Position numbers and translations under genes: made by a program. DNA of 19,234 nt from IMG/VR virus record IMGVR_UViG_2563366844_000003; one strand, 5' to 3'. Positions 1,261-18,723 of the stretch are shown here, one piece after another (within the stretch, counting starts at the first letter, position 1; each line of letters starts with the position of its first letter). Under the pieces are notes generated by a model. It was not told the DNA's origin, did not search any database, and was given only the letters and a program-made list of their open reading frames with translations. Source of the stretch: a virus (taxonomy: Duplodnaviria; Heunggongvirae; Uroviricota; Caudoviricetes).

Positions 1261-1355
1261 CTGAATAGATTGAGCCTAGCTCGACGGGGCGAAAAGCGGG
1301 AAGCCTTACCGCCTGGCTCAATCACAAAATAAGGCGCAGCGTAAAAGGTGACGCA

Positions 1356-2201
1356 ATGAAAAAACTACCACCAAATCTTTTTTTCCGACTTAATAGAGCA
1401 GCAAATTTATTAGAAATAGAAGTCGATGATCTTCTACTTATGGGAGTATCAGGCTCTATATTTTTGAGCACAATAATTCACCAGTATGAAGGCGTACTCT
1501 ATCAAGCGGGAAACTTGCCACCAGACCACGGCAGCAAAGACATAGAAAACTTATTATTTGGTTCTATTATTTCTACTAGAGAAGATACCGAAAGATATCT
1601 AAATGAAGGTGTTTTCGATGGTATGAAGTGCTTAGCAAGTGGATTATGGCACGTTCCTAGTGATTTCATTGCTTCCCTTGCAGGGGTTAAGAGAGCCCCT
1701 GACATTCCACTCATATTCTCACCAGCATATATAAAAAAAGAACTAGACATCACATCAGGACGTTACTTTTTCTACGATTTTCGCGAACATGATACCACCG
1801 TATCGTCTGTGGAAGATTTGTATATATCAAGACCGTGGGTTGAATATATAGCTGAAAGCATGGATAAAAATCAGCCAATACCCAGCATACTCCATTTGGG
1901 TTCACACGATCTTTATGAAAAGGAATTTAAAAACATAGAGCATGGAAATAGAGCACGACATAGCCTAAACCGTGAGAATAGCATTATGGCGTTGATTTAT
2001 GTGAAACGGCACTATCCTGAAGAGTGCAAAGGGAAAAACGGGAAAGAAACCAACGAAGCGTGGGCAAACGCTACGATAGACCACTGGCCACATGTGGGTG
2101 GCGATTATGATGAACCATCTACAGATTATTTAAAGAAGATCATATCTGACATGGACAGATTGCCGGAAAAACGTACCACGGCAGGAAAGAAGAAATCATG
2201 A
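1356..2201 (+). CDS. Hypothetical 281-aa protein, AT-rich cargo gene in the integrase-proximal slot
   Basis: Intact ORF with AAGGTG-like SD upstream. Visibly AT-richer than flanking int and alpA. No recognisable motif by eye. Confidence 0.6.
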   Translation: MKKLPPNLFFRLNRAANLLEIEVDDLLLMGVSGSIFLSTIIHQYEGVLYQAGNLPPDHGSKDIENLLFGSIISTREDTERYLNEGVFDGMKCLASGLWHVPSDFIASLAGVKRAPDIPLIFSPAYIKKELDITSGRYFFYDFREHDTTVSSVEDLYISRPWVEYIAESMDKNQPIPSILHLGSHDLYEKEFKNIEHGNRARHSLNRENSIMALIYVKRHYPEECKGKNGKETNEAWANATIDHWPHVGGDYDEPSTDYLKKIISDMDRLPEKRTTAGKKKS

Positions 2202-2202
2202 T

Positions 2203-2234
2203 AATAAAATTTAGTATCGTGACAATAAAATTTA
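2203..2234. repeat. Direct repeat AATAAAATTTA x2 (2203-2213, 2224-2234) upstream of alpA
   Basis: Two identical 11-mers 21 bp apart in the AT-rich intergenic region before alpA. Confidence 0.35.
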
Positions 2235-2270
2235 CTGTAATTCACTTTTGAGCATGCACACCATTAAATA

Positions 2271-2309
2271 CCCGTAACGAAGCAACAACTATCGCTAAGA
2301 GGTTACGGG
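2271..2309 (+). promoter_or_regulatory. Inverted repeat CCCGTAAC...GTTACGGG whose right arm overlaps the alpA ribosome-binding site
   Basis: 8-bp perfectly complementary arms (2271-2278 and 2302-2309) with a 23-nt spacer. The right arm lies inside GAGGTTACGGGAAGC immediately 5' of the ATG at 2314. Confidence 0.3.
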
Positions 2310-2960: not shown

Positions 2961-3794
2961 ATGAACATCGAAAAAAGCAGATTAATTTCTGAGGCCGCCC
3001 CTCATCTGAACGCCTCTCTGGGCACAATTAACGGTAATGAATTTGCCGCAATTGTCCCGGTTATTCCTGGTCATATCGGTGGGCGTGAAACCAATATTGT
3101 TAGCGCAAAAGCGTTACACAAAGCGTTGGGCGTGGGAAAAGACTTCTCTACATGGATCACTGATCGCATCTCTGAATATGACTTCACCATTGGGCACGAT
3201 TACTCAGTCCATAAAACAATTTCCCCAAATTTGGGGAAAAGCCCGAATGGCGCGGCTTACAGCAAGATTAAGCAGTCTGGCAGACCCGGCAAAGACTATC
3301 TGTTAAGTGTCGGAATGGCGAAAGAACTGGCAATGATCGAACGCAATGATCAGGGTCGCGCTATCCGTCGTTATTTCATCCAGTGCGAGGAAGAATTACA
3401 GCGTAGCGTGCCTGAAATCGCCGCCCGCTATCGTCGCCAGCTAAAAGCCCGTATCAGTGCCGCAAACAACTTTAAGCCAATGTGCGATGCGCTGAATATG
3501 GCCCGTGCCGAGATGGGTAAAACGACGCAGCAACACCACTACACAAACGAGAGCAATATGATTTCTCGTATCGTTTTTGGTGGGCTAACTGCTAAGCAGT
3601 GGGCGCGGATAAATGGCTATTCTGGCGAACCTCGCGACCATATGAACGCAGAACAGCTTGAGCACCTCTCATATCTCGAAAGCACCAATATCACGTTAAT
3701 TGATATGGGCATGGAATATGAGCAGCGCAAAGGAGAACTCACCCGCCTGTCGCAACGCTGGCTCGCCAAGCGTCTGGAGGCGGTCCATGTTTAA
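2961..3794 (+). CDS. Phage antirepressor, AntA-domain family
   Basis: 277 aa. N-terminal ALHKALGVGKDFSTWITDRISEYDF and the block MAKELAMIERNDQGRAIRRYFIQCEEEL match the conserved AntA antirepressor signature as I recall it. GGAG SD 7 nt upstream. Confidence 0.75.
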   Translation: MNIEKSRLISEAAPHLNASLGTINGNEFAAIVPVIPGHIGGRETNIVSAKALHKALGVGKDFSTWITDRISEYDFTIGHDYSVHKTISPNLGKSPNGAAYSKIKQSGRPGKDYLLSVGMAKELAMIERNDQGRAIRRYFIQCEEELQRSVPEIAARYRRQLKARISAANNFKPMCDALNMARAEMGKTTQQHHYTNESNMISRIVFGGLTAKQWARINGYSGEPRDHMNAEQLEHLSYLESTNITLIDMGMEYEQRKGELTRLSQRWLAKRLEAVHV

Positions 3795-3969
3795 GCCGAC
3801 AGGAACACCCCAACCTCAAAAACGCTACAAAGATGCCCACGGAGCACTCGTTACTGTCGAAAGCGTGTCTCACAACCGAGTGACGTTTTATCGCGACGGG
3901 TATCAATCGCCATGCGTACAACCGCTGGCACGTTTCATGAAGGAGTTTGCGGAGGTTAACAAATGCTAA
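3787..3969 (+). CDS. Small conserved prophage protein (DUF4222-like, tentative)
   Basis: 60-aa ORF starting at ATG 3787, which overlaps the antirepressor stop (ATGTTTAA). MFKPTGTP...RVTFYRDGY...PCVQPLARFMKEF resembles a small family common in enterobacterial prophages. The ORF track extends it upstream to 3700, inside the preceding gene. Confidence 0.45.
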   Translation: MFKPTGTPQPQKRYKDAHGALVTVESVSHNRVTFYRDGYQSPCVQPLARFMKEFAEVNKC

Positions 3970-5030
3970 CCGCCCAGAAGAAGATATTTTCACTGGCTGG
4001 TATGTCGCCAAAATCCAGCAATATGACAGCAAAGTCTGGCATTAATACAGCAGACACAAGCAAAGTTTATCATTTTCTGGTGGTAGGAGCGGATGCCTTA
4101 ACTATGTCAGAAATTACGGTCGATGGTGTTAGCGTTGAGAAGGTCAGCGGCTGCGCCAGAGAATTTCTGGTCGTAGATGGCTTTCTCTGCTCGCGTAGTG
4201 ACTCCACAAAAACCTTCGTCCACACGCGCGACGTTAACGAAATGAGCGCGATGTATTGTGCATCTGGTGCTTCCAATTCTGAGTTTTCGGAGTCCATAAA
4301 AAAGAGCTTGCCGTTATGCGGCAACACGGTTTATGGTTATAAGGCACCTCATAAAACGGGTGCCGGGATTGGCGTCCTGGTAAATCGAATGGCGACATAT
4401 GACGCGCCGAGCGTCTTTTTTTATGTCGTAGGTCTGACTCACCCATTTTTTGGGCGTTGGTGTATAATCCAGCGCCTTTGTCAATCAATGGTGGCTCAGG
4501 CAGGGGCTTCTTCGGAAGCGCCGGTATCCATTCGAGCCGGTTACGCCAACCCTGTCTGGGCTACCACCAGCGAAATTGGCGTTTCCGGTGGTAGCGTTAC
4601 ATGCTATCGAATGGAGGCTGCCACATGCTGGCTACTACCCCTACCCAAAAACCGCAATTTATCTGGATTATCGCCGCAGTTCGCCGCGATTGCCCGACAA
4701 TTACCGCCAAAATTCATCATATTGCTGCCGAGTCTGAACGCGATGCTCGCCGTTCTCTGGTGCGCGATCACGTCTGCTTTTTTGCTGGTCGTATCCGCAT
4801 GGAGGTGGCACATGATTAAAACCTACGATGTGCATATGGATCCCCTCGAACGCACAAGCCAGATCATCACACTGACAGAAGTGATTAACGACATTCTGGT
4901 GAGCAACTCTCCCTCACGAGACGAAAGACTGAAGGCGTTACTCGCGATATTGGATCTCGCCGTTCGTGACGTTCATTTCCTGCTGGAAGGTGGCGAAATG
5001 CCAGGAAAAACGGGGGCAACCAATGAATAA
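3963..5030 (+). CDS. Uncertain long ORF (355 aa); possibly composite, with a regulatory region and nested small ORFs
   Basis: Strong GGAGG SD 7 nt before ATG 3963 and no in-frame stop to 5030. The 4400-4810 portion contains a terminator-like hairpin plus T-run, a TATAAT box, three open frames and a low-complexity Cys/Trp-rich translation. Confidence 0.3.
4401..4422 (+). terminator. Putative intrinsic terminator (GACGC-gccga-GCGTC followed by T7)
   Basis: 5-bp GC stem, 5-nt loop, seven consecutive T. Lies inside the 3963 ORF, so it is functional only if that ORF is not translated through. Confidence 0.3.
4430..4470 (+). promoter_or_regulatory. Putative promoter with consensus -10 TATAAT (4463-4468) for the operon leading to the primase
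   Basis: Perfect TATAAT hexamer preceded by TG-rich sequence. The -35 is only a weak match (CTGACT region). Sits immediately after the terminator-like hairpin. Confidence 0.3.
4625..4819 (+). CDS. Small ORF (64 aa), first candidate gene of the primase operon
   Basis: GGAGG SD (4613-4617) 7 nt before ATG 4625. The SD-to-ATG 17-mer ATGGAGGCTGCCACATG is nearly duplicated at 4797-4814. Overlaps another frame, so low confidence. Confidence 0.25.
   Translation: MLATTPTQKPQFIWIIAAVRRDCPTITAKIHHIAAESERDARRSLVRDHVCFFAGRIRMEVAHD
4812..5030 (+). CDS. Small ORF (72 aa), C-terminal part of the 3963 frame with its own strong start
   Basis: GGAGG (4801-4805) 6 nt before ATG 4812. Stop overlaps the next start (ATGAATAA). 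Translation is protein-like. Confidence 0.4.
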   Translation: MIKTYDVHMDPLERTSQIITLTEVINDILVSNSPSRDERLKALLAILDLAVRDVHFLLEGGEMPGKTGATNE

Positions 5031-7006: not shown

Positions 7007-9749
7007 TCTTATCCGTCAGGTTATCAGTGCGTCTGAAAACAACTGGCCTCATGTGCTGGGCTGCCTGAACATAAATGTCCCTGACTCTCCGCGCCGTCAT
7101 GCTCCCTGCCCTGCATGTGGGGGCAAAGATCGATTCCGGTTCGATGACAACGGGCGCGGTAGCTTCATCTGTAATCAGTGCGGCGCTGGTGATGGGCTGG
7201 ATTTAATTAAACGCGTAAATAACTGCGACACAACAGAGGCGGCGCTTCTTGCCGCTGATGTTCTGGGTATTGATTACCGGACAACGGAAACACCAGAAGC
7301 CACCAGCCAGAAACGGGAACAACTGGAAACCAAGCGCCAGCGACGCGAACAGGAGCGCCTGAAAAGGGCAGAGAAGGACGAACAACAAAGACGGGATACG
7401 TTTTCCCGTCAGTTTGATGACATGCGCAGAAAGGCTGTAAACGGCAAATCTGATTATCTGGTTGCGAAAGGGGTAGGTGATTTTACATTCCCCGTGTTGC
7501 CCGATGGATCTCTGTTGCTGGCGCTGGTGGATAAATCCGGCGCAGTCACAGCAGCACAGACTATTACCTCACATGGTGAAAAAAGACTCCTGACAGGTTC
7601 AGCAAAGCGGGGGGCATATCACGCCATAAACGCACCAGAAACAACACAGAGCATCTTAATCGCAGAAGGGCTGGCAACGGCATTATCTGCCCATTTAATT
7701 CGCCCAGAGGCGCTTACAGTGGCGGCGATTGATGCCGGGAACCTGTTATATGTCGCCCAGGTACTGCGGGATAAATTTCCTTCAGCACAAATCATCATTG
7801 CTGCGGATAACGACCACAGCGAAGGAAGACAAAACACGGGGAGAAGAGCAGCAGAAAAAGCAGCTTTATCTGTTTCTGGATGGGTGGCATTACCCCCGAC
7901 AGATCACAAAGCAGACTGGAATGATTACCACCAAAAACACGGCATTAAATGCGCCACAGAAGCGTTCAATAAGTCAATGTACCAACCACAGGGTAATGGC
8001 GTGAAACAGGAGCCACAGACCATTGAGGGAAGCGATTTTAAGGTTATGGATACCGACCCACTGAAACCAAGAATAGAAAGCCGCGAGGATGGTATTTATT
8101 GGGTATCTCCGAGAGCTGACAGCCAGAGTGGAGAAATCATCAATAACGAAAGCTGGTTATGTTCTCCGTTAAGCGTTATCGGTACTGGCAGAGACGATAA
8201 AGACCAGTATCTCATTCTTCGCTGGCTGTCGTTTGGTTCTGAAACGCCGACAACCGCTGCCATTCCACTGGCTGATATTGGTGAACGTGAAGGATGGCGC
8301 ACACTTAAAGCTGGTGGGGTAACTGTCACGACCAAAAGCAGCCTCAGAGCAATACTGGCAGACTGGCTACAACGCAGTGGCTCTCGTGAATTGTGGCGTG
8401 TTGCTCATGCCACTGGCTGGCAATGCGGAGCGTACATCATGCCTGATGGGGAAATCATCGGAACACCTGAAAATCCTGTGCTGTTCAGCGGGAGAAGCTC
8501 AGCCGCAGCCGGATATACCGTCTCAGGGAGCGCGAAAAGCTGGCGTGATAACGTGGCGCGTCTGGCCTTTGGTAACTATTCAATGATGACCGGGATCGGC
8601 GCAGCACTGGCAGCGCCATTGATTGGGCTGGTGGGCGCTGACGGGTTCGGCATTCATTTCTATGAGCAGTCGAGCGCAGGTAAGACCACCACGGCAAACG
8701 TGGCGAGCAGCTTATACGGCAACCCTGATTTACTGCGGCTGACGTGGTACGGAACCGCGCTGGGGCTGGCAAATGAAGCTGCCGCCCACAATGACGGACT
8801 AATGCCGCTTGATGAAGTTGGTCAGGGCGCTGATCCTGTCAGTGTTTCACAGTCTGCCTATGCGTTATTTAACGGTGTAGGGAAACTGCAAGGCGCTAAA
8901 GATGGTGGAAACCGGGATCTAAAACGCTGGCGTACAGTGGCAATCAGCACCGGAGAAATGGATTTAGAAACATTTATCGCTACTTCCGGGCGAAAAACCA
9001 AAGCCGGGCAACTGGTGCGACTGCTGAATATTCCGTTGAGTAAAGCAGTACGCTTTCACGATTACCAGAACGGAAAACAGCACGCAGACGCACTGAAAGA
9101 CGCTTACCAGCATCACCACGGCGCAGCCGGGCGTGAGTGGATTAAATGGCTGGCAGACCACCAGCAACAGGCAATTAAAACTGTTCGTGACCGCGAAAGC
9201 AGATGGAGAAGTCTGATCCCATCCGATTATGGTGAGCAGGTTCACCGTGTAGCCGCGCGATTTGCCATTCTGGAGGCCGCATTGCTGTTAGGCGAGGTTG
9301 TAACAGGCTGGGATGCTCAGACATGCCGTGATGCGATACAGCACAGCTATAACGCATGGTTGCGCGAGTTCGGCACAGGTAACAAAGAACATCAGCAGAT
9401 TATTGAACAAACGGAGGCATTTCTTAATGCCTATGGGCTTAGCCGTTTTGCACCATTTCCATACAGCCCGGCAGATTTGCCCATCAAAGATTTAGCCGGA
9501 TACCGTCAGCGTGGAGAACATGACGAAAGCCCAATGATTTTCTACACATTCCCGGCCACATTTGAAAAGGAGATCGCATGTGGTTTCAACGCAAAACAGT
9601 TTGCTGAAGTGTTGAAAAAAGCCGGGATGCTAACCCCACCAAACAGCGGTCGTGGATACCAAAGAAAATCACCACGTATTCAGGGACGACAAATAAACGT
9701 TTATGTACTCAATTACCAGCCAGGAGATTACAACTCATCTGAAGAATGA
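6993..9749 (+). CDS. Replicative primase/helicase, P4-alpha-like (zinc-binding N-terminus, TOPRIM, P-loop NTPase)
   Basis: Zn-ribbon CPACGG...FICNQCG near the N-terminus. TOPRIM-like ILIAEGLATA and IIIAADNDHSEG (acidic E and DxD). P-loop-like SSAGKTTT. Start is probably ATG 6993; the track begins at the in-frame GTG 6990. Confidence 0.9.
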   Translation: MRNIDLIRQVISASENNWPHVLGCLNINVPDSPRRHAPCPACGGKDRFRFDDNGRGSFICNQCGAGDGLDLIKRVNNCDTTEAALLAADVLGIDYRTTETPEATSQKREQLETKRQRREQERLKRAEKDEQQRRDTFSRQFDDMRRKAVNGKSDYLVAKGVGDFTFPVLPDGSLLLALVDKSGAVTAAQTITSHGEKRLLTGSAKRGAYHAINAPETTQSILIAEGLATALSAHLIRPEALTVAAIDAGNLLYVAQVLRDKFPSAQIIIAADNDHSEGRQNTGRRAAEKAALSVSGWVALPPTDHKADWNDYHQKHGIKCATEAFNKSMYQPQGNGVKQEPQTIEGSDFKVMDTDPLKPRIESREDGIYWVSPRADSQSGEIINNESWLCSPLSVIGTGRDDKDQYLILRWLSFGSETPTTAAIPLADIGEREGWRTLKAGGVTVTTKSSLRAILADWLQRSGSRELWRVAHATGWQCGAYIMPDGEIIGTPENPVLFSGRSSAAAGYTVSGSAKSWRDNVARLAFGNYSMMTGIGAALAAPLIGLVGADGFGIHFYEQSSAGKTTTANVASSLYGNPDLLRLTWYGTALGLANEAAAHNDGLMPLDEVGQGADPVSVSQSAYALFNGVGKLQGAKDGGNRDLKRWRTVAISTGEMDLETFIATSGRKTKAGQLVRLLNIPLSKAVRFHDYQNGKQHADALKDAYQHHHGAAGREWIKWLADHQQQAIKTVRDRESRWRSLIPSDYGEQVHRVAARFAILEAALLLGEVVTGWDAQTCRDAIQHSYNAWLREFGTGNKEHQQIIEQTEAFLNAYGLSRFAPFPYSPADLPIKDLAGYRQRGEHDESPMIFYTFPATFEKEIACGFNAKQFAEVLKKAGMLTPPNSGRGYQRKSPRIQGRQINVYVLNYQPGDYNSSEE

Positions 9750-10512: not shown

Positions 10513-10974
10513 ATGGAACTAAAATTTATTGATAACCCTGTGCGATTACAGGCCTTTCTTAACGAGCCTGGCAATACCGAAAATATTGTTGAGCCGGGGC
10601 ACACGTACTACATCAAGCCTGATGCGGTATATCTCGGTATCTACGAAGGATTGGTGCTGGCTGGCGTTCATGAAGTGCGTAACTTCTGGCATAACATTGT
10701 TGAATGCCATGCGGTGTACGACCCCGGATTCCGTGGTGAATATGCACTGCAAGGGCATCGATTATTCTGCAAATGGCTTCTCAAAAACTCACCATTCCTT
10801 AACAGCATTACCATGGTTCCTGACACCACCAAATACGGACGGGCAATTATCCGTTTGCTTGGCGCTACCCGTGTTGGTCACCTTGATGATGCTTATATCA
10901 GATGTGGTAAACCCGTCGGCGTAACGCTTTATCAGTTAACTCGGCAACAATATAAGGAATTCAGCGAATGTTAA
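10513..10974 (+). CDS. Putative virion-associated protein, first gene of the ejection-protein-like operon (position analogous to P22 gp14)
   Basis: 153-aa intact ORF whose stop overlaps the next start. Assignment rests on operon position and size, not a recognised motif. Confidence 0.65.
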   Translation: MELKFIDNPVRLQAFLNEPGNTENIVEPGHTYYIKPDAVYLGIYEGLVLAGVHEVRNFWHNIVECHAVYDPGFRGEYALQGHRLFCKWLLKNSPFLNSITMVPDTTKYGRAIIRLLGATRVGHLDDAYIRCGKPVGVTLYQLTRQQYKEFSEC

Positions 10975-11645
10975 TTACCCATATAGCTCATAAATATCTC
11001 AATCGTGCCGTATACGAAAAAGGCGGTGATGGTGGTGCCTCTAAAGCTCAGGCGAAGGCCCAGCAGCAGGCAATTGATTTGCAGCGCGAGCAGTGGAATA
11101 CGGTGATGAATAATCTCAAGCCGTATGCAGAAGTCGGATTGCCTGCTTTACAACAACTACAAGGACTGATGACTCTGGAAGGGCAGAATAAAGCCGCGAA
11201 TGATTTCTTTGGTTCTGGTTTATATAAAACACAGGCAGATCAGGCCCGTTATCAGAACCTTGTCTCAGCAGAAGCTACCGGGGGGCTTGGCTCAACAGCT
11301 ACCAGTAACCAGTTATCTTCCATTGCGCCCATGCTTTATAACAATTGGCTCAGTGGGCAAATGCAAAATTATGGAAACCTGCTAAATGTCGGGATGAATG
11401 CGGCATCAGGGCAGGCAACAGCAGGGCAAAACTACGCCAATAATACCGGACAACTCTTGCAGGGGCTTGGCGCTATTCGTGCAGGTCAGGCGCAGCAGCC
11501 ATCCAGTCTTGCGCGTGGTATTGGTGGGGCGGCATCAGGCGCTTTAGCGGGTGCGCAACTTGGTTCCGTTGTTCCGGGTATAGGTAATGTCGCCGGGGCT
11601 ATTGGTGGTGGGCTTATTGGTCTTGTTGGGGGGCTTGGATTCTAA
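10968..11645 (+). CDS. Putative ejection/DNA-transfer protein (P22 gp7-like architecture; Gly-rich hydrophobic C-terminus)
   Basis: 225 aa. Gln/Ala-rich N-terminal half and a glycine-zipper-like tail GIGGAASGALAGAQLGSVVPGIGNVAGAIGGGLIGLVGGLGF. Stop overlaps the next start (TAATG). Confidence 0.7.
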   Translation: MLITHIAHKYLNRAVYEKGGDGGASKAQAKAQQQAIDLQREQWNTVMNNLKPYAEVGLPALQQLQGLMTLEGQNKAANDFFGSGLYKTQADQARYQNLVSAEATGGLGSTATSNQLSSIAPMLYNNWLSGQMQNYGNLLNVGMNAASGQATAGQNYANNTGQLLQGLGAIRAGQAQQPSSLARGIGGAASGALAGAQLGSVVPGIGNVAGAIGGGLIGLVGGLGF

Positions 11646-12964
11646 TGGCGACATGGCAACTTGGCGGGCTGCCTAGCATGGCACCGCAAAATGATAATGC
11701 TCCTCGTTCTTCCGTTCCTCAGCCTGTGCAGTATCAGCAGCAGCCAAACGTAGGTTTAATGGCGCTACAGGGGCTAAGAGGCGTTGCTGAGATTAATCAG
11801 CAGGCGCAAATTTCCCAGCAGCTAAAAGAATATCAGGCACGGTTGGGTAGTGCGGTAGCTAATAATGATCGTGTTGGAGTGCAGAAGTTAATGGCCCAGT
11901 ATCCCCAGTTTATGGCTGATTCTCAAAAACAGATGGGATTCATTGATGCTGAGCAAAATCGACAGACCGCTGACGCTGCCATGAATCTGCGTCTTGCGTC
12001 ACAAACTGGAGATCCACTGACCATGCAGAAGGCCATTCAGCAGGCAAATCCAGTATTACAGCGATTTGGTCTTCCTGCTGAAGAGGTTTATCAGTCTTGG
12101 CAGAATGACCCACAGGAATTCAACAGAATCACTGACCTCATCCACCTCCATGCTGATCCAAATAGTTACTTTAGTGTTCAAGAGAAGCAGCAAGGGCAGA
12201 GCATTGCACAGCAGAACGCAGATACATCTGCATATAATGCTCAGGTTAATGCGGAACAGGGTAATCGGCGTCTCGATATGGAGCAGTTCAAAGTCCTATC
12301 CGATAACCAACTACGCACGAGAGAAATGGTTCTGAAAGCACGACTTGGACGTGCTCAAAATGACATCGAGAGAGACAAGCTCAATGCTGAACTGAGCAAA
12401 GTACAGCAGGCGAAAGTGGAGAAGATGAACGATAAAATTAATACTGTTGCAGGTAACATCGACTCCTTGAACTCTGCGCTTGAAGTGGGTCATGAACTGG
12501 CGGGAATTGTAGGGAAACATCCTTCGGCCGTTACCCGCTCGCAGAACTATAACCCCCTGACGCTGGGGTTTGGATTCCTTCCTGATGTAGCAGAAGACAC
12601 ACGAAGCCTACGCGCCAAAGCTGATGAATACAACCTAAAGGTTATTCTGCCTAGCCTCAAAGGGACTTTTGGCTCTAACCCAACCGAAGGGGAAAGGGCT
12701 GCCCTTATGCAATCTCAAAATGGCATTAAGTCAGCAACCAGCAATGAGGCATTTTTGCGAGAGTTGAATAAAGCGCAGGACGTAATTATTCGAATGCAGA
12801 AACGACAGATTGCCGGGCTCGGTATTCCTGTAACCAAATCAAAGGACGAAGAAACTGATACCAAAATGCTGTTGCAGGATCCTTCACTGATTAAGGATTA
12901 TGTGACCGCACATGGCTATCTGCCGGAAAGTTACTATCAGGCAAAACTTAAGGGATGGCAATGA
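11645..12964 (+). CDS. Putative ejection protein (P22 gp20-like; Gln-rich coiled-coil)
   Basis: 439 aa, Gln-rich and predicted alpha-helical. Coupled start/stop with both neighbours. Confidence 0.7.
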   Translation: MATWQLGGLPSMAPQNDNAPRSSVPQPVQYQQQPNVGLMALQGLRGVAEINQQAQISQQLKEYQARLGSAVANNDRVGVQKLMAQYPQFMADSQKQMGFIDAEQNRQTADAAMNLRLASQTGDPLTMQKAIQQANPVLQRFGLPAEEVYQSWQNDPQEFNRITDLIHLHADPNSYFSVQEKQQGQSIAQQNADTSAYNAQVNAEQGNRRLDMEQFKVLSDNQLRTREMVLKARLGRAQNDIERDKLNAELSKVQQAKVEKMNDKINTVAGNIDSLNSALEVGHELAGIVGKHPSAVTRSQNYNPLTLGFGFLPDVAEDTRSLRAKADEYNLKVILPSLKGTFGSNPTEGERAALMQSQNGIKSATSNEAFLRELNKAQDVIIRMQKRQIAGLGIPVTKSKDEETDTKMLLQDPSLIKDYVTAHGYLPESYYQAKLKGWQ

Positions 12965-15681
12965 TGGCACAACTGACAGAAAAACAGAAAGCCTATTCCC
13001 GTCATCTCGATGAAAAATATGGTTTCCCATCAGGGACGATGGAAACATTAGTTGGCAATGAATCTAGTGGTAACGGAAGTGCCGAGTCACCGAAAGGAGC
13101 TAGAGGATTTGCTCAACTGATGCCCTCAGTAATGAGTGATGCTGGTTATCGTGGAACTGATCCGCGCTCACTGCCATTTGAAAAGCAAATGGATATCGCA
13201 GCAAACCATCTCAATAAAGGAATGAAGCGATTTGGTGATATTGGTATGGCATTGGCTGGGTATAATTCTGGCTATGCTCGTATTAATGCCGTCAGAAACG
13301 GTAAATCTACACTGCCAGATGAAACGGCTAATTACGTAAGTAAATTTGCAGATGCCGGAATAATCCCTGATGACAGTGAAATCTTGCAGTTTGCACAAAC
13401 CAGTCAACATCGCAATCTTCAGCAGCCTGACTACTCAGAGCTTGATAAAGAAATCTCTCAGGTGGGAGATATTTCTGCATGGGAAGCAAAACGTCAGCAA
13501 TTTAAGAACATAGAAGCAGGACTACCAACAGCCAGTTCATGGGAGCAGAAAAGAGCTCAGTTTCTCGCCGATGAAAATGCCGGGGAACCGCAGCAGCAAG
13601 TAGCCAAGTCTAACCTTAATCCTGAGATGGAATATCTTTCGCCAGGACTGAAAGCTGCGCCAGAGCAGATGGCCAGAGGGATTGCTAATATACCGTTTGA
13701 TGTAATGGACGCAGGCGTGGGGGTAGTCAATGCGGCGCAATCAGCCGGAGCATGGGCAGCTCAGAAGCTTGGTGTGGGTGATGGCACATACACGCCCATA
13801 TCACCTGTCTTTCGCCCAGTAGACCAACCTACAGATCCATACGCGCAGGCTGGTGAGCAGCTAGCACCTTACCTTATTACAGGATTAGGTGCAGGAAAGG
13901 CAGCTACCGCAGCTTCTTCCGTTGCCAACGCTCCACGTGCTGAACGTGCGGCCACAAAGGTGGCTAGTATGTTGGCAGAAAACCTGCCAGGTACATTGGT
14001 GAACGCCCAAAAGAACGGGCAGATCAGCCCAGAAGACCTAGCAAAAGAGACAGGTATTGGCCTAGCAGGATCGCTAGGAGCACGCGCTTTAATAAAGAGC
14101 GGACAGACAGCCAGTGACGTAATGCGAGATGTATTGCGGAGTAATACAAATCAATCAGGCCATGTGTTAGGGGCAGCAAATACTCTGGAAACCGCCAATG
14201 ATGTATCGAAAGCAGCGCGTTCTGCCGTAGGCCGAGAGCATATCGCATCGCAGGCATCAAACGTCAGAGATGATGTCGCTAAGGCGGCGAAAATCACTGG
14301 TATTAATATCAACACCCTGACGCCCGGAATGCGCTCAGGTAGTCGTGGAATTGCCCAAGCAGAAGGTGTTCTGGCATCAACTCCTGGGAATGTTCAGGAT
14401 GCTCACCTTACGGCCTTCAATGAAATATCCTCAAAGTTGAATAAGCAGTTGTCTGATTTCGGTGCTGAGTCTGGAAGCGCATCAGAAAAAAGCGCAGCAA
14501 TTAAAGAGCGCATCATCGCGAGCCTCAGTGATATGAAAACAGCAGAGAATATGGCATGGGCAGAACTGCGAAGCACGATGCCACGCGAAAGGATGAAAAT
14601 GAGTAATGGGATGGCTGTCGTCCAAGCAGAAAAAGCAGCCAATGTTCCACTCAGCCCGGAGATGAAACAGTTTCAGGCTGCCAACAACCAAGGTGGCGGC
14701 ATAACCTTCGACGGGATGAAGGCATGGCGTGCTAAGTTTGCTGATGCTGAACAAGCAAACACCCGGGCAGGTAAGGCCAATGCCGCCCGGATTGCCGGAG
14801 AAATGCGCAGAGCTATCACTGATGACATGCGCATCATGGCTGAAAAAGGAAACTTCCTCACAGAATGGCAGAAAGCTAACGATCTCTCTAAAAGTTACAT
14901 TATCGCCAAACAAAATGCCGAATCTGTTTTTGGTCGAGATCTCGCATCAGACGCTATGGTAAGAAAAGGTGCCGATACGCTTAAGGCATCCGCAAACACT
15001 GGAACGGGAGCTTTTCACCGCCTTATCTCCGCGCTGCCGGAAGCAGAACGCCAACCAGCAATAGCATCTATTCTTCAGCATGCTGTGGCGCAGGGAGAGA
15101 AGGGAGGAATCGGTGAAGAGTCTGGTATCCAGTATTTTGCCAAGCTCATGACCCAGCAGAATGTAAACGCCATCAGTCGTCATGCGCCAGATCTCGGTAG
15201 AATGATGAAAGAGTTCGGTGTACTCGCTAAAGCCAGCACCAGACCGCAGCGATACGTAGAGCGCACGGGAAGAACAACTGAGGCTCTCAAAACGCTCGAT
15301 TCAGGCCTTCCAAAGATCGTCGGTGTGATCATGAACGGAGTTCAACAGTCAGGTGCGATCGCTGGAGGCTTTGGCGGTGGTGTAATTGGTTCGATTAGTG
15401 GTTTGGTTGCTGGTGGCGCACTGAGAAATACTGTGGCTAAGATTGGGGCGACAAGAAGTGGTCGATATGCGATAGAGAAAGCCGTTCAGGAAGCTACAAA
15501 AGCAGTGCGCGCAGGGGCATCACCAGCAGCGATCGCCGCAGCAGAGAAACGATTTTCGACCAATAAAATTGCCATGAAAGCAATTCGTGATGCCGTTGGG
15601 GCTGAAGAATTCGTGAAACTGACAAGGGCCGGGATTGTAGCTACCCTCAGTGGCATGAAAGATGTTAGCGAATGGGAATAG
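12955..15681 (+). CDS. Large internal virion/ejection-type protein with N-terminal lytic transglycosylase (SLT) domain
   Basis: 908 aa. SLT motifs GNESSGNGSAESPKGARGFAQLMP (putative catalytic Glu at nt 13060-13062) and ALAGYNSGYARINAV. True start is probably ATG 12961 or 12964, which have better SD spacing from AAGGGA. Confidence 0.85.
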   Translation: MAMMAQLTEKQKAYSRHLDEKYGFPSGTMETLVGNESSGNGSAESPKGARGFAQLMPSVMSDAGYRGTDPRSLPFEKQMDIAANHLNKGMKRFGDIGMALAGYNSGYARINAVRNGKSTLPDETANYVSKFADAGIIPDDSEILQFAQTSQHRNLQQPDYSELDKEISQVGDISAWEAKRQQFKNIEAGLPTASSWEQKRAQFLADENAGEPQQQVAKSNLNPEMEYLSPGLKAAPEQMARGIANIPFDVMDAGVGVVNAAQSAGAWAAQKLGVGDGTYTPISPVFRPVDQPTDPYAQAGEQLAPYLITGLGAGKAATAASSVANAPRAERAATKVASMLAENLPGTLVNAQKNGQISPEDLAKETGIGLAGSLGARALIKSGQTASDVMRDVLRSNTNQSGHVLGAANTLETANDVSKAARSAVGREHIASQASNVRDDVAKAAKITGININTLTPGMRSGSRGIAQAEGVLASTPGNVQDAHLTAFNEISSKLNKQLSDFGAESGSASEKSAAIKERIIASLSDMKTAENMAWAELRSTMPRERMKMSNGMAVVQAEKAANVPLSPEMKQFQAANNQGGGITFDGMKAWRAKFADAEQANTRAGKANAARIAGEMRRAITDDMRIMAEKGNFLTEWQKANDLSKSYIIAKQNAESVFGRDLASDAMVRKGADTLKASANTGTGAFHRLISALPEAERQPAIASILQHAVAQGEKGGIGEESGIQYFAKLMTQQNVNAISRHAPDLGRMMKEFGVLAKASTRPQRYVERTGRTTEALKTLDSGLPKIVGVIMNGVQQSGAIAGGFGGGVIGSISGLVAGGALRNTVAKIGATRSGRYAIEKAVQEATKAVRAGASPAAIAAAEKRFSTNKIAMKAIRDAVGAEEFVKLTRAGIVATLSGMKDVSEWE

Positions 15682-18435: not shown

Positions 18436-18723
18436 ATGATGAGGGACAGGAAAGCTGAAGAGCTGGAGTCAAAAGGGCTATGCCGGAGAGCTGCCGCACG
18501 ATGGGCAGAAGTCATGACGCTGGCAGATGGCGATAAAGAACGTGAACATGCAGCAAACAGACGCTCTGAATGTATCCGTAGGGCGGCACGCCCACCAGCA
18601 ACTACAGACAGATTCGGAGATTTAAGACAGGCAGTTAAGCGAACTCATTCGGCTCTTGGTATGGATGAGGAAGCGAGAGGGTACTTCAGGCGTTATCGCG
18701 ATAAAGATTGCCAGAGACAGTAA
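18436..18723 (+). CDS. PerC-family transcriptional regulator (tentative)
   Basis: 95 aa. N-terminus KAEELESKGLCRRAAARWAEVM resembles the PerC motif (AEKLEAKGLWRRAA.RW.EV) as I recall it. GAGAGG SD. Confidence 0.6.
   Translation: MMRDRKAEELESKGLCRRAAARWAEVMTLADGDKEREHAANRRSECIRRAARPPATTDRFGDLRQAVKRTHSALGMDEEARGYFRRYRDKDCQRQ

Follow-up and report, generated by a model that had tools for sequence, protein, structure and literature searches.

A variable gene between int and alpA of an EcCIMP1-like island is a candidate phage-recognition module

The stretch of DNA analysed here, IMG/VR record IMGVR_UViG_2563366844_000003 (19,234 nucleotides; referred to below as the window), carries an open reading frame (ORF) for a protein of 281 residues between a tyrosine integrase gene (int) and the gene for AlpA, the master activator of Gram-negative phage-inducible chromosomal islands (PICIs) (PMC6092414, PMC11773190). 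The gene is real, the slot that it occupies is variable, the cassette exchanged at this slot includes the DNA just upstream of alpA, and the middle part of the protein changes by amino acid replacements. The gene probably shapes the response of the island to phages. With somewhat less than even confidence, we read its product as a phage-recognition module coupled to the induction of alpA. The ORF would be the protein part of an exchangeable int-alpA cassette in an EcCIMP1-like island; binding of a phage-encoded protein by its hypervariable middle domain would be relayed through its conserved ends to the adjacent alpA promoter, and the allele would decide which phages switch the island on. Its function would thus be that of a gate, like Stl of the Staphylococcus aureus pathogenicity islands (SaPIs).

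An exchangeable gene upstream of alpA

The target ORF is a genuine gene and not a chance ORF, since full-length homologues with 37-58% identity are present in other Enterobacterales, AlphaFold2 returns a model for the protein, and RefSeq carries the coding sequence as WP_000735991.1. An earlier sequence-only reading had described the ORF as lying between int and alpA, as AT-richer than both neighbours and as lacking a recognisable motif, and all of this is borne out. Pfam confirms the neighbours as a tyrosine integrase and Phage_AlpA. The GC content of the ORF is 0.396, compared to about 0.49 on each side (0.494 for int and 0.488 for alpA-to-antA) and 0.481 for the entire window, and that of its third codon positions (GC3) is 0.344 vs. 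0.44-0.53 in neighbouring genes. The protein has no match in Pfam, NCBIfam, PHROGs, PADLOC or PDB sequences.

The int-to-alpA interval was compared across related islands. In E. coli, islands inserted between yicC and dinD whose int and alpA are ~91-99% like those of the window (matched parts) hold at least five different slot occupants; slot-type frequencies were read from sampled result tables. With the 281-aa target as the reference, the AR_0085 type (321 aa) has the common N- and C-terminal modules around another middle (hhalign probability 97%, 95 C-terminal columns), and the L006 type (316 aa) has the same N- and C-terminal motifs as judged by eye. A 293-aa family aligns to the target over its first ~43 residues only, and not significantly; homology between the two families was considered and is not demonstrated by these columns (hhalign E 0.0025, probability 12%), and the C-terminal modules are unrelated. 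Two further occupants are unrelated to the target, namely: the L008 type, which consists of a 216-aa ORF and 470 nt of non-coding DNA, and a 283-aa DUF6387 protein, which is found in a more diverged island (~80% identical). The slot is always filled by a single gene of ~216-380 aa, and every occupant is AT-rich (GC 0.36-0.43).

The gene is therefore replaced among islands with closely matching int and alpA. Conservation at this position in all related elements, an outcome that the sequence-only reading had named as contrary to its proposal of a variable accessory or anti-phage gene, was not found, as the occupants differ. The integrase-adjacent cargo hotspot that it had envisaged agrees with the variable slot but not with the constancy of one gene of similar size, which is unlike typical defence hotspots. 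A location between int and a regulator, with content varying between closely related islands, is that of the PICI 5′ accessory region, whose position and variability are already known and which the target matches in both. In the literature, PICI immune systems occupy either the 5′ or the 3′ end of an island (PMC11364771), and P4 has its hotspot between psu and int (PMC9122126). In the L008 locus itself (E. coli AHM8C212RI, 1566-2686), the 216-aa slot ORF overlaps the int stop codon by 4 nt, and the 470 nt between this ORF and alpA are AT-rich and hold no annotated gene; by a rough extrapolation from a sampled table, this variant may be the commonest in yicC-dinD islands.

The family to which the target belongs is slot-specific and is named F1 here. 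All 17 readable genomic contexts of F1 members, in several genera and at several attachment sites, adjoin an integrase or alpA. The order int, F1 member, alpA is found in 14 of them (E. coli, Leclercia, Enterobacter and metagenomes included), among which is counted L015, with an uncalled AlpA-like ORF (MTPIKRKILTKHEVKAILRL...) at 7143-7525 in the gap after its F1 member, P0048. In the remaining three, alpA directly follows the F1 member and the integrase side is not readable. Most of the contexts are islands that encode a DUF927 or Toprim primase. A tblastn search found no F1 member among 50,697 phage genomes and, among plasmids, three Klebsiella records only, of which the two inspected adjoin alpA. 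A scan of representative genomes with the F1 protein alignment found nothing, while a scan of representative genomes with an 18-mer of the RNA leader described below gave mostly chance matches in GC-rich genomes and two informative loci. One circular record of 21,845 bp, CP031371.2 (K. pneumoniae ‘plasmid’ pKpvST101_4), was deposited as a non-mobilizable plasmid and carries an F1 member, AlpA, an antirepressor and DUF4222; a second record, NZ_CP033626.1, is similar. CP031371.2 may represent such an island after excision and circularisation.

On comparison of the islands, the left boundary of the cassette is the start codon and the right boundary is the alpA leader hairpin (Table 1). The exchanged unit thus consists of the ORF and ~70 nt of 3′ flank and therefore carries two palindromes and a predicted alpA promoter. 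The left anchor is an int-alpA RNA motif that is conserved, together with the AAGGTG Shine-Dalgarno sequence, in other islands, and which precedes F1, F2 and DUF6387 occupants, whichever gene follows. In L007, the outer stem of this leader shows a compensatory change (ACCGGAAC/GTTCCGGT), and the leader is missing from L006, L008, L011 and L017, in which int and the slot ORF abut. Its possible roles are sib-like control of int or a platform for expression of the slot gene. The hairpin at the right boundary is kept with alpA in the islands compared, with both AlpA types, and varies with AlpA type; the exception is L012, which has another perfect palindrome (GTTACCTGC-N16-GCAGGTAAC) in its place. 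It could be a translational control element or an AlpA autoregulatory site.

Strain QDFD216 shows an example of cassette transfer. Compared to the window, its int is 81.6% identical (ratio of nonsynonymous to synonymous substitution rates, dN/dS, 0.03) and its alpA 91.7% identical (dN/dS 0.06), while its slot ORF is 98.6% identical and its 112-nt 3′ flank has two base differences, neither of them in the palindromes. That the swapped unit includes the predicted alpA promoter region suggests a link to regulation of the island.

Mosaic build of the protein and selection on its middle domain

Members of F1, a small enterobacterial family, fell into only ~10 clusters when 5.8 billion proteins were searched with a word index; exhaustive searching of 1.84 billion representatives with HMMER yielded 46 clusters (50% identity), all of ~280-380 aa. 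When aligned, a conserved N-terminal segment (consensus PPLEYC.L.RAA.LL.CE..DLLHW...GAI.L) and a conserved C-terminal block (consensus HGN.ER.A.NRE..L.AAIY.L..YP.EC.G) enclose a middle that is barely alignable, and the proteins end in RTTAGKPK in the subfamily of the target and in ITNEDVILRHLRAA.NG in another. Identity to the closest paralogous type is 28-40% in the middle domain vs. 62-76% at the ends.

The AlphaFold2 model, built with 43 family sequences, has a mean predicted local distance difference test score (pLDDT) of 82.9, with values above 90 for the N-terminal domain (residues 1-45) and the C-terminal module (200-270). It consists of a winged helix-turn-helix (wHTH) followed by a long beta strand at residues 38-50 and no coiled coil, a mixed alpha/beta hypervariable middle and an all-helical C-terminal module. 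The remote-homology and structure check that the sequence-only reading had recommended thus yielded a winged helix, but structure comparison of the target matched nothing further, and no enzymatic, toxic or membrane domain was seen in it.

Several assignments were considered and set aside. Membership of the MerR family does not agree with the long beta strand in place of a coiled coil, nor with the absence of a Pfam match for the target. A small-terminase role (wHTH beside repeats) and an HNH-like nuclease (from the HGN motif) do not agree with the mixed alpha/beta hypervariable middle and the all-helical C-terminal module. The C-terminal module alone gave a single match in the PDB, which was driven by the expression-tag sequence ENLYFQG and was rejected.

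A winged helix encoded beside int might point to an accessory factor of the integrase or to an excisionase-like recombination directionality factor, a role that we consider very improbable. It is contradicted because the cassette and int exchange independently (98.6% vs. 81.6% identity for int in QDFD216), and the same int pairs with unrelated occupants. In addition, the target is four times the size of Xis or AlpA and lies below the HTH_17 and Phage_AlpA thresholds, HTH_17 being reached by only one of 40 family members (E 0.005); its second helix is acidic. The excisionase/AlpA class was set aside for this 281-aa protein on the same points, together with its lack of a Pfam match. Furthermore, excision of EcCIMP1 needs alpA and int, and the two are genetically sufficient for it (PMC11773190).

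In Shimwellia pseudoproteus (L080), the slot ORF at 2998-3933 of the reverse-complemented locus encodes 311 aa, in which the family N-terminal module is joined to an unrelated C-terminus. The int-alpA RNA motif precedes this ORF, there is no adjacent alpA, and the 3′ flank has a different direct repeat, TCGCATTTARGTT, in two copies. By this comparison, L080 shows that the F1 N-terminal module can recombine onto other protein bodies.

Among the alleles of the target, those of strain 042 and TUM10008 differ from that of the window by 4 synonymous and 0 replacement changes. The QDFD216 allele differs from it at 11 codons and the metagenomic P0002 allele at 13, and these two differ from each other at 5; every one of these differences is a replacement. 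Comparison of the allele groups yields ~16 replacement events and no synonymous one (P = 0.023 vs. neutrality, with 21% of sites synonymous), and replacement/synonymous changes are heterogeneous among branches (P = 2e-4). Residues 42-176 account for 14 of the 15 substituted positions (P = 3e-4), and the winged helix for none. As the changes are replacement-only and cluster in residues 42-176, the middle domain appears to be under diversifying selection, in a small sample of three distinct target protein alleles and five DNA sequences.

Replacement-only change in the middle domain would also suit a stand-alone anti-phage protein, of the kind suggested in the sequence-only reading, or a superinfection-immunity protein, without a role in alpA control. 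Such a protein would be made with int in the quiescent island, and its middle domain would block a phage protein stoichiometrically, in the manner of Tai. We regard this as somewhat less likely than the recognition module, but as a serious alternative to it. Co-transcription with int is plausible, as the promoter scan predicted none between int and the ORF, and in several cassette types the gene is followed by a terminator-like hairpin of its own. PICI 5′ and 3′ ends carry immune systems (PMC11364771), unrelated AT-rich genes swap in closely matching islands, and EcCIMP1 confers superinfection immunity without a recognisable defence system (PMC11773190). The defence models of PADLOC-DB v2.0.0, nevertheless, gave no match for the target at E up to 10; 43 family members gave two unrelated single matches only, and six other slot occupants gave one weak match (PDC-S31, E 0.002, AR_0085 occupant), which is regarded as chance because the 43 family members do not reproduce it. 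There is thus no reproducible PADLOC match for the target, 42 family members or the six other occupants, and the winged helix is the sole structural match. For mobile defence genes, it would be unusual to turn up at one position only and never in a phage genome, as is the case for F1, and, in contrast to the P4 and P2 hotspots, this slot never has more than one gene, which is of a similar size each time. If the target were nonetheless a stand-alone defence gene, it would represent a new family without a known domain.

A cargo function unrelated to phages, for example modulation of host expression or physiology by a protein of the PerC type in a recombination-prone slot, is in our view improbable. 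The composition of the gene is AT-rich and foreign-looking, the winged-helix fold is compatible with a regulator, and the island has other host-directed regulators, namely its PerC-type protein, whose EcCIMP1 counterpart is a repressor of the enterocyte effacement locus (LEE) (PMC11773190). However, changes that are replacement-only and clustered in a single domain point to an arms race rather than to a host-directed function, and the strict linkage to alpA and to such islands (17 of 17 readable contexts) would be left unexplained.

The 3′ flank and coupling to alpA

The 3′ flank of the target gene is predicted to contain operator-like sites and the alpA promoter (Table 1). The palindrome repeat unit is not found elsewhere in the window. 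The predicted -10 stops one base short of the alpA leader hairpin, and a consensus promoter scan missed this promoter because its -10 is without an A at position 2. Seven loci of the RTTAGK subfamily, from E. coli, Leclercia, Enterobacter and metagenomes, have a pair of palindromes ~21 nt apart before the alpA leader, and their proteins are just 31-58% identical to the target. In five aligned loci, the -10 and the 17-nt spacing are present in all five and the -35 in four (L124 has TTCCTT), and the spacer sequence is variable. The other F1 subfamily has AGTA-N-TACT palindromes at the same place, partly inside terminator hairpins, and a palindrome of another kind, with 12-bp arms, lies in the flank of the 293-aa family. 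A core of the form A[CG]TA-N3-7-TA[CG]T, chosen post hoc from the same related sequences, occurs 16 times in 13 F1 flanks vs. 0.58 expected from shuffles, and 0 times in 5 non-F1 flanks. We claim conservation of the palindrome sites within subfamilies only.

The two AlpA types (67 and 72 aa) pair freely with the slot families, both with and without palindrome sites; hence it is with the slot gene and not with AlpA that the sites are associated. In a natural domain swap (P0014), the site type tracks the physically adjacent C-terminal module, and in Shimwellia, with an N-terminal module and a foreign C-terminus, the sites appear to be absent from a flank that was judged by reading and not scanned. 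It should be noted that the comparison of module and site type is confounded by linkage. A correspondence between residue 202 (His vs. Phe/Tyr) and the half-site base (G/A or C), seen by eye in the RTTAGK subfamily (n = 7), was dropped, as it fails in the other subfamily. In addition, the two palindromes contain a promoter-like site on the minus strand at 2225-2198 (TTGTCA, 16 nt, TATCAT; 10 of 12 matches), which is oriented into the target ORF from its 3′ end. An antisense promoter is one possibility, a fortuitous match in AT-rich DNA the other.

We prefer the reading of the target as a phage-recognition module coupled to alpA on several grounds. F1 and unrelated orphans recur immediately upstream of alpA, and F1 is limited to this position. 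One protein of similar size fills the slot in every case, the cis sites are retained along with the gene, the middle domain shows diversifying change, and Gram-negative PICIs are without a known repressor or inducer. In these islands, the phage inducer of alpA is unidentified and the existence of a repressor has been described as unclear (PMC6092414). The pairing of a variable gene with alpA is seen elsewhere too: DUF6387 is followed by alpA in ICEKp258.2 (PMC10763509), and intA, yfjH and alpA follow one another in CP4-57 of K-12. Coupling would occur through binding of the palindromes, most plausibly by the basic C-terminal helix and tail; alternatively, the acidic winged-helix domain would hold AlpA. 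The phage ligand, the binding to DNA or AlpA and the sign of the effect on alpA are what we infer within this proposal.

A number of observations weigh against a recognition module of this kind. Upstream of the -35, where the palindromes are (about -46 and -67 relative to the predicted start), is not the classical position of a repressor; furthermore, the gene has the same direction as alpA, in contrast to stl and str. DNA binding by the target is doubtful because its winged-helix domain, which is net acidic family-wide and has a second helix without basic or polar residues, and the protein as a whole are both acidic. One operator motif for the whole of F1 was tried and rejected, with a strict match in one of three held-out loci. 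The linkage of gene and promoter could merely reflect the position of the recombination anchors, while the terminator-like hairpins after the gene in several other cassette types suit independent cargo. Regulation could also be supplied by the isrK and C4 RNAs and the antirepressor on the island. Finally, the slot of EcCIMP1 holds a small unrelated gene, and in EcCICFT073 alpA apparently comes straight after int with no slot gene, yet the island is helper-induced; the target is therefore not a universal core gene of such islands.

By analogy, F1, the 293-aa family, DUF6387 and YfjH could together be the missing phage sensors of AlpA-controlled Gram-negative islands, each exchanged with its cognate promoter region, a generalisation that we consider rather unlikely. 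If it is true, each is an allele-specific receptor, in which a phage protein bound by the variable domain would either license alpA induction or block it, and a cassette swap would re-target the satellite to a new helper. The F1 family, its mosaic build and its co-transfer with a predicted alpA promoter are not described in the literature searched. The locus bears on the open question of how a helper switches on alpA and whether Stl has any counterpart in Gram-negative PICIs (PMC6092414), as well as on the source of EcCIMP1 superinfection immunity (PMC11773190). It offers a single-gene cassette with a natural allelic series, clear boundaries and an arms-race signature, which adjoins a predicted alpA promoter in 37 E. 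coli genomes. If the cassette sets helper specificity or immunity, a single recombination event would be enough to diversify the phage interactions of near-identical satellites.

The island and its relation to known systems

Table 1. Features of the int-alpA interval and its surroundings, with positions in the window.
Feature	Position	Strand	Remarks
Tyrosine integrase (int), 419 aa	1-1260	+	Left island end; Pfam Arm-DNA-bind_3, Phage_int_M, Phage_integrase
int-alpA RNA motif, Rfam RF02996	1269-1335	+	Left cassette anchor; cmscan 60.6 bits vs. gathering score 35.8
Shine-Dalgarno AAGGTG of target ORF	1345-1350	+	Read from sequence; 5 nt 5′ of ATG
Target ORF, 281 aa	1356-2201	+	ATG start; F1 family
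N-terminal winged-helix module, residues 1-50	1356-1505	+	Conserved across family; net acidic
Hypervariable middle domain, residues 42-176	1479-1883	+	Carries the replacement substitutions
Helical C-terminal module, residues 196-268	1941-2159	+	Motif HGN..R...NRE....AL......YP.EC.G; from alignments, hhalign, pLDDT
Basic tail RTTAGKKKS	2160-2198	+	Directly after C-terminal module
Palindrome 1, GATAATAAAATTTAGTATC	2200-2218		Begins within target stop codon
Palindrome 2, ACAATAAAATTTACTGT	2222-2238		21 nt centre-to-centre from palindrome 1
Predicted alpA promoter	2241-2269	+	-35 TTCACT 2241-2246, 17-nt spacer, -10 TTAAAT 2264-2269
alpA leader hairpin, CCCGTAAC-N23-GTTACGGG	2271-2309	+	Encloses Shine-Dalgarno; ends 4 nt 5′ of alpA ATG
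alpA, 67 aa	2314-2517	+	Pfam Phage_AlpA, E 2.2e-8
PerC-type protein	18436-18723		Pfam scan

By its gene content, the element is an EcCIMP1-like PICI of ~20 kb: it has the expected gene set and no capsid, tail or lysis genes. The same DNA is present in 37 of 5,426 complete E. coli genomes, strain 042 included, inserted between yicC and dinD, and the integrase is annotated beside yicC in E. coli 042. The gene order starts with int, the target ORF, alpA, a PM1773-family protein, an AntA antirepressor, DUF4222 and Ash, and goes on with a Zn-ribbon/Toprim/DUF927 primase, DUF2824, P22 gp7, a P22 injectosome translocase, an SLT-domain protein and PerC. Neither the annotation of the 042 island nor Pfam scans of the window ORFs reveal psu, sid or delta; the element is therefore not a P4-like satellite, and the analogy to such satellites drawn in the sequence-only reading is not upheld.

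The genes at 10513-15681 (+), for DUF2824, P22 gp7, a P22 injectosome translocase domain protein and a 908-aa SLT-domain protein, make up a set of P22-type DNA-ejection genes in a satellite without capsid or tail genes. This fits a P22-like helper, by analogy to EcCIMP1, which is mobilised by the P22-like phage Kapi1 (PMC11773190). Matches to isrK (4344-4421, +, 67.1 bits) and to the C4 antisense RNA (4484-4571, +, 79.5 bits) both fall within a 355-aa ORF at 3963-5030, which RefSeq names ‘ash family protein’ and in which Pfam Phage_ASH covers residues 124-232 only. The position of the two RNAs suggests P1/P4-style RNA-based immunity, and the ash-family coding sequence is possibly called over-extended.

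Among known systems, EcCIMP1 (E. coli MP1, helper Kapi1) shares the layout of the island: it likewise has int, a slot gene, alpA, an antirepressor, Ash, a DUF927 primase, DUF2824, DNA-transfer genes and PerC in ~20 kb (PMC11773190). It differs in its integrase and in its attachment site, which is tRNA-Thr there and yicC-dinD here, and its slot gene, EcCIMP1_002, is small, was once mis-annotated as UvrB and is not F1 (PMC11773190). The psu-int hotspot of P4 resembles the slot in that cassettes are replaced next to the integrase of a satellite between conserved anchors (PMC9122126). The present element, however, is without psu, sid and delta and is an AlpA/DUF927-primase PICI with P22-type ejection genes; moreover, a P4 hotspot may contain one gene or many, and these often form recognisable systems (PMC9122126), compared to the single orphan of ~216-380 aa here.

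The immune genes at PICI 5′ ends, including Tai (Fillol-Salom 2022, as related in PMC11364771), are int-proximal and variable in content between islands, as is the target. In that account, Tai proteins are small and without known defence domains, again like the target, and can act by binding phage proteins (PMC11364771). The target has no homology to Tai, nor to PADLOC models, and F1 is confined to a single slot, whereas Tai homologues are mostly phage-borne (PMC11364771).

YfjH of CP4-57 in K-12 and the DUF6387 protein of ICEKp258.2 resemble the target in being uncharacterised and in having their genes immediately upstream of alpA in islands with an integrase. They are ~290-320 aa long and have no detectable sequence relationship to F1; the literature on yfjH and DUF6387 yielded no functional data. 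In CP4-57 (L133, 3645-3857 and 2645-3601), yfjH (318 aa) occupies the intA-alpA slot on the opposite strand and diverges from alpA across a 43-nt gap, an arrangement like that of SaPI stl/str.

The comparison with SaPI Stl (Rpr) is the one on which the proposed gate is modelled. The target differs from Stl in having no sequence or overall fold similarity to it, an acidic winged helix and an orientation co-directional with alpA and not divergent, with its candidate sites (2200-2238) upstream of the predicted -35. Unlike the Gram-positive islands with Stl, Gram-negative PICIs use the activator AlpA, and some have no slot gene. The variable part of Stl binds a helper-phage protein; that the target may do likewise is supported indirectly by the replacement-only change in its middle domain. 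Like Stl, the target is encoded beside int, is highly divergent between islands, combines a predicted fold of the DNA-binding type with a variable part and lies next to the promoter, here a predicted one, that starts the lytic programme of the island.

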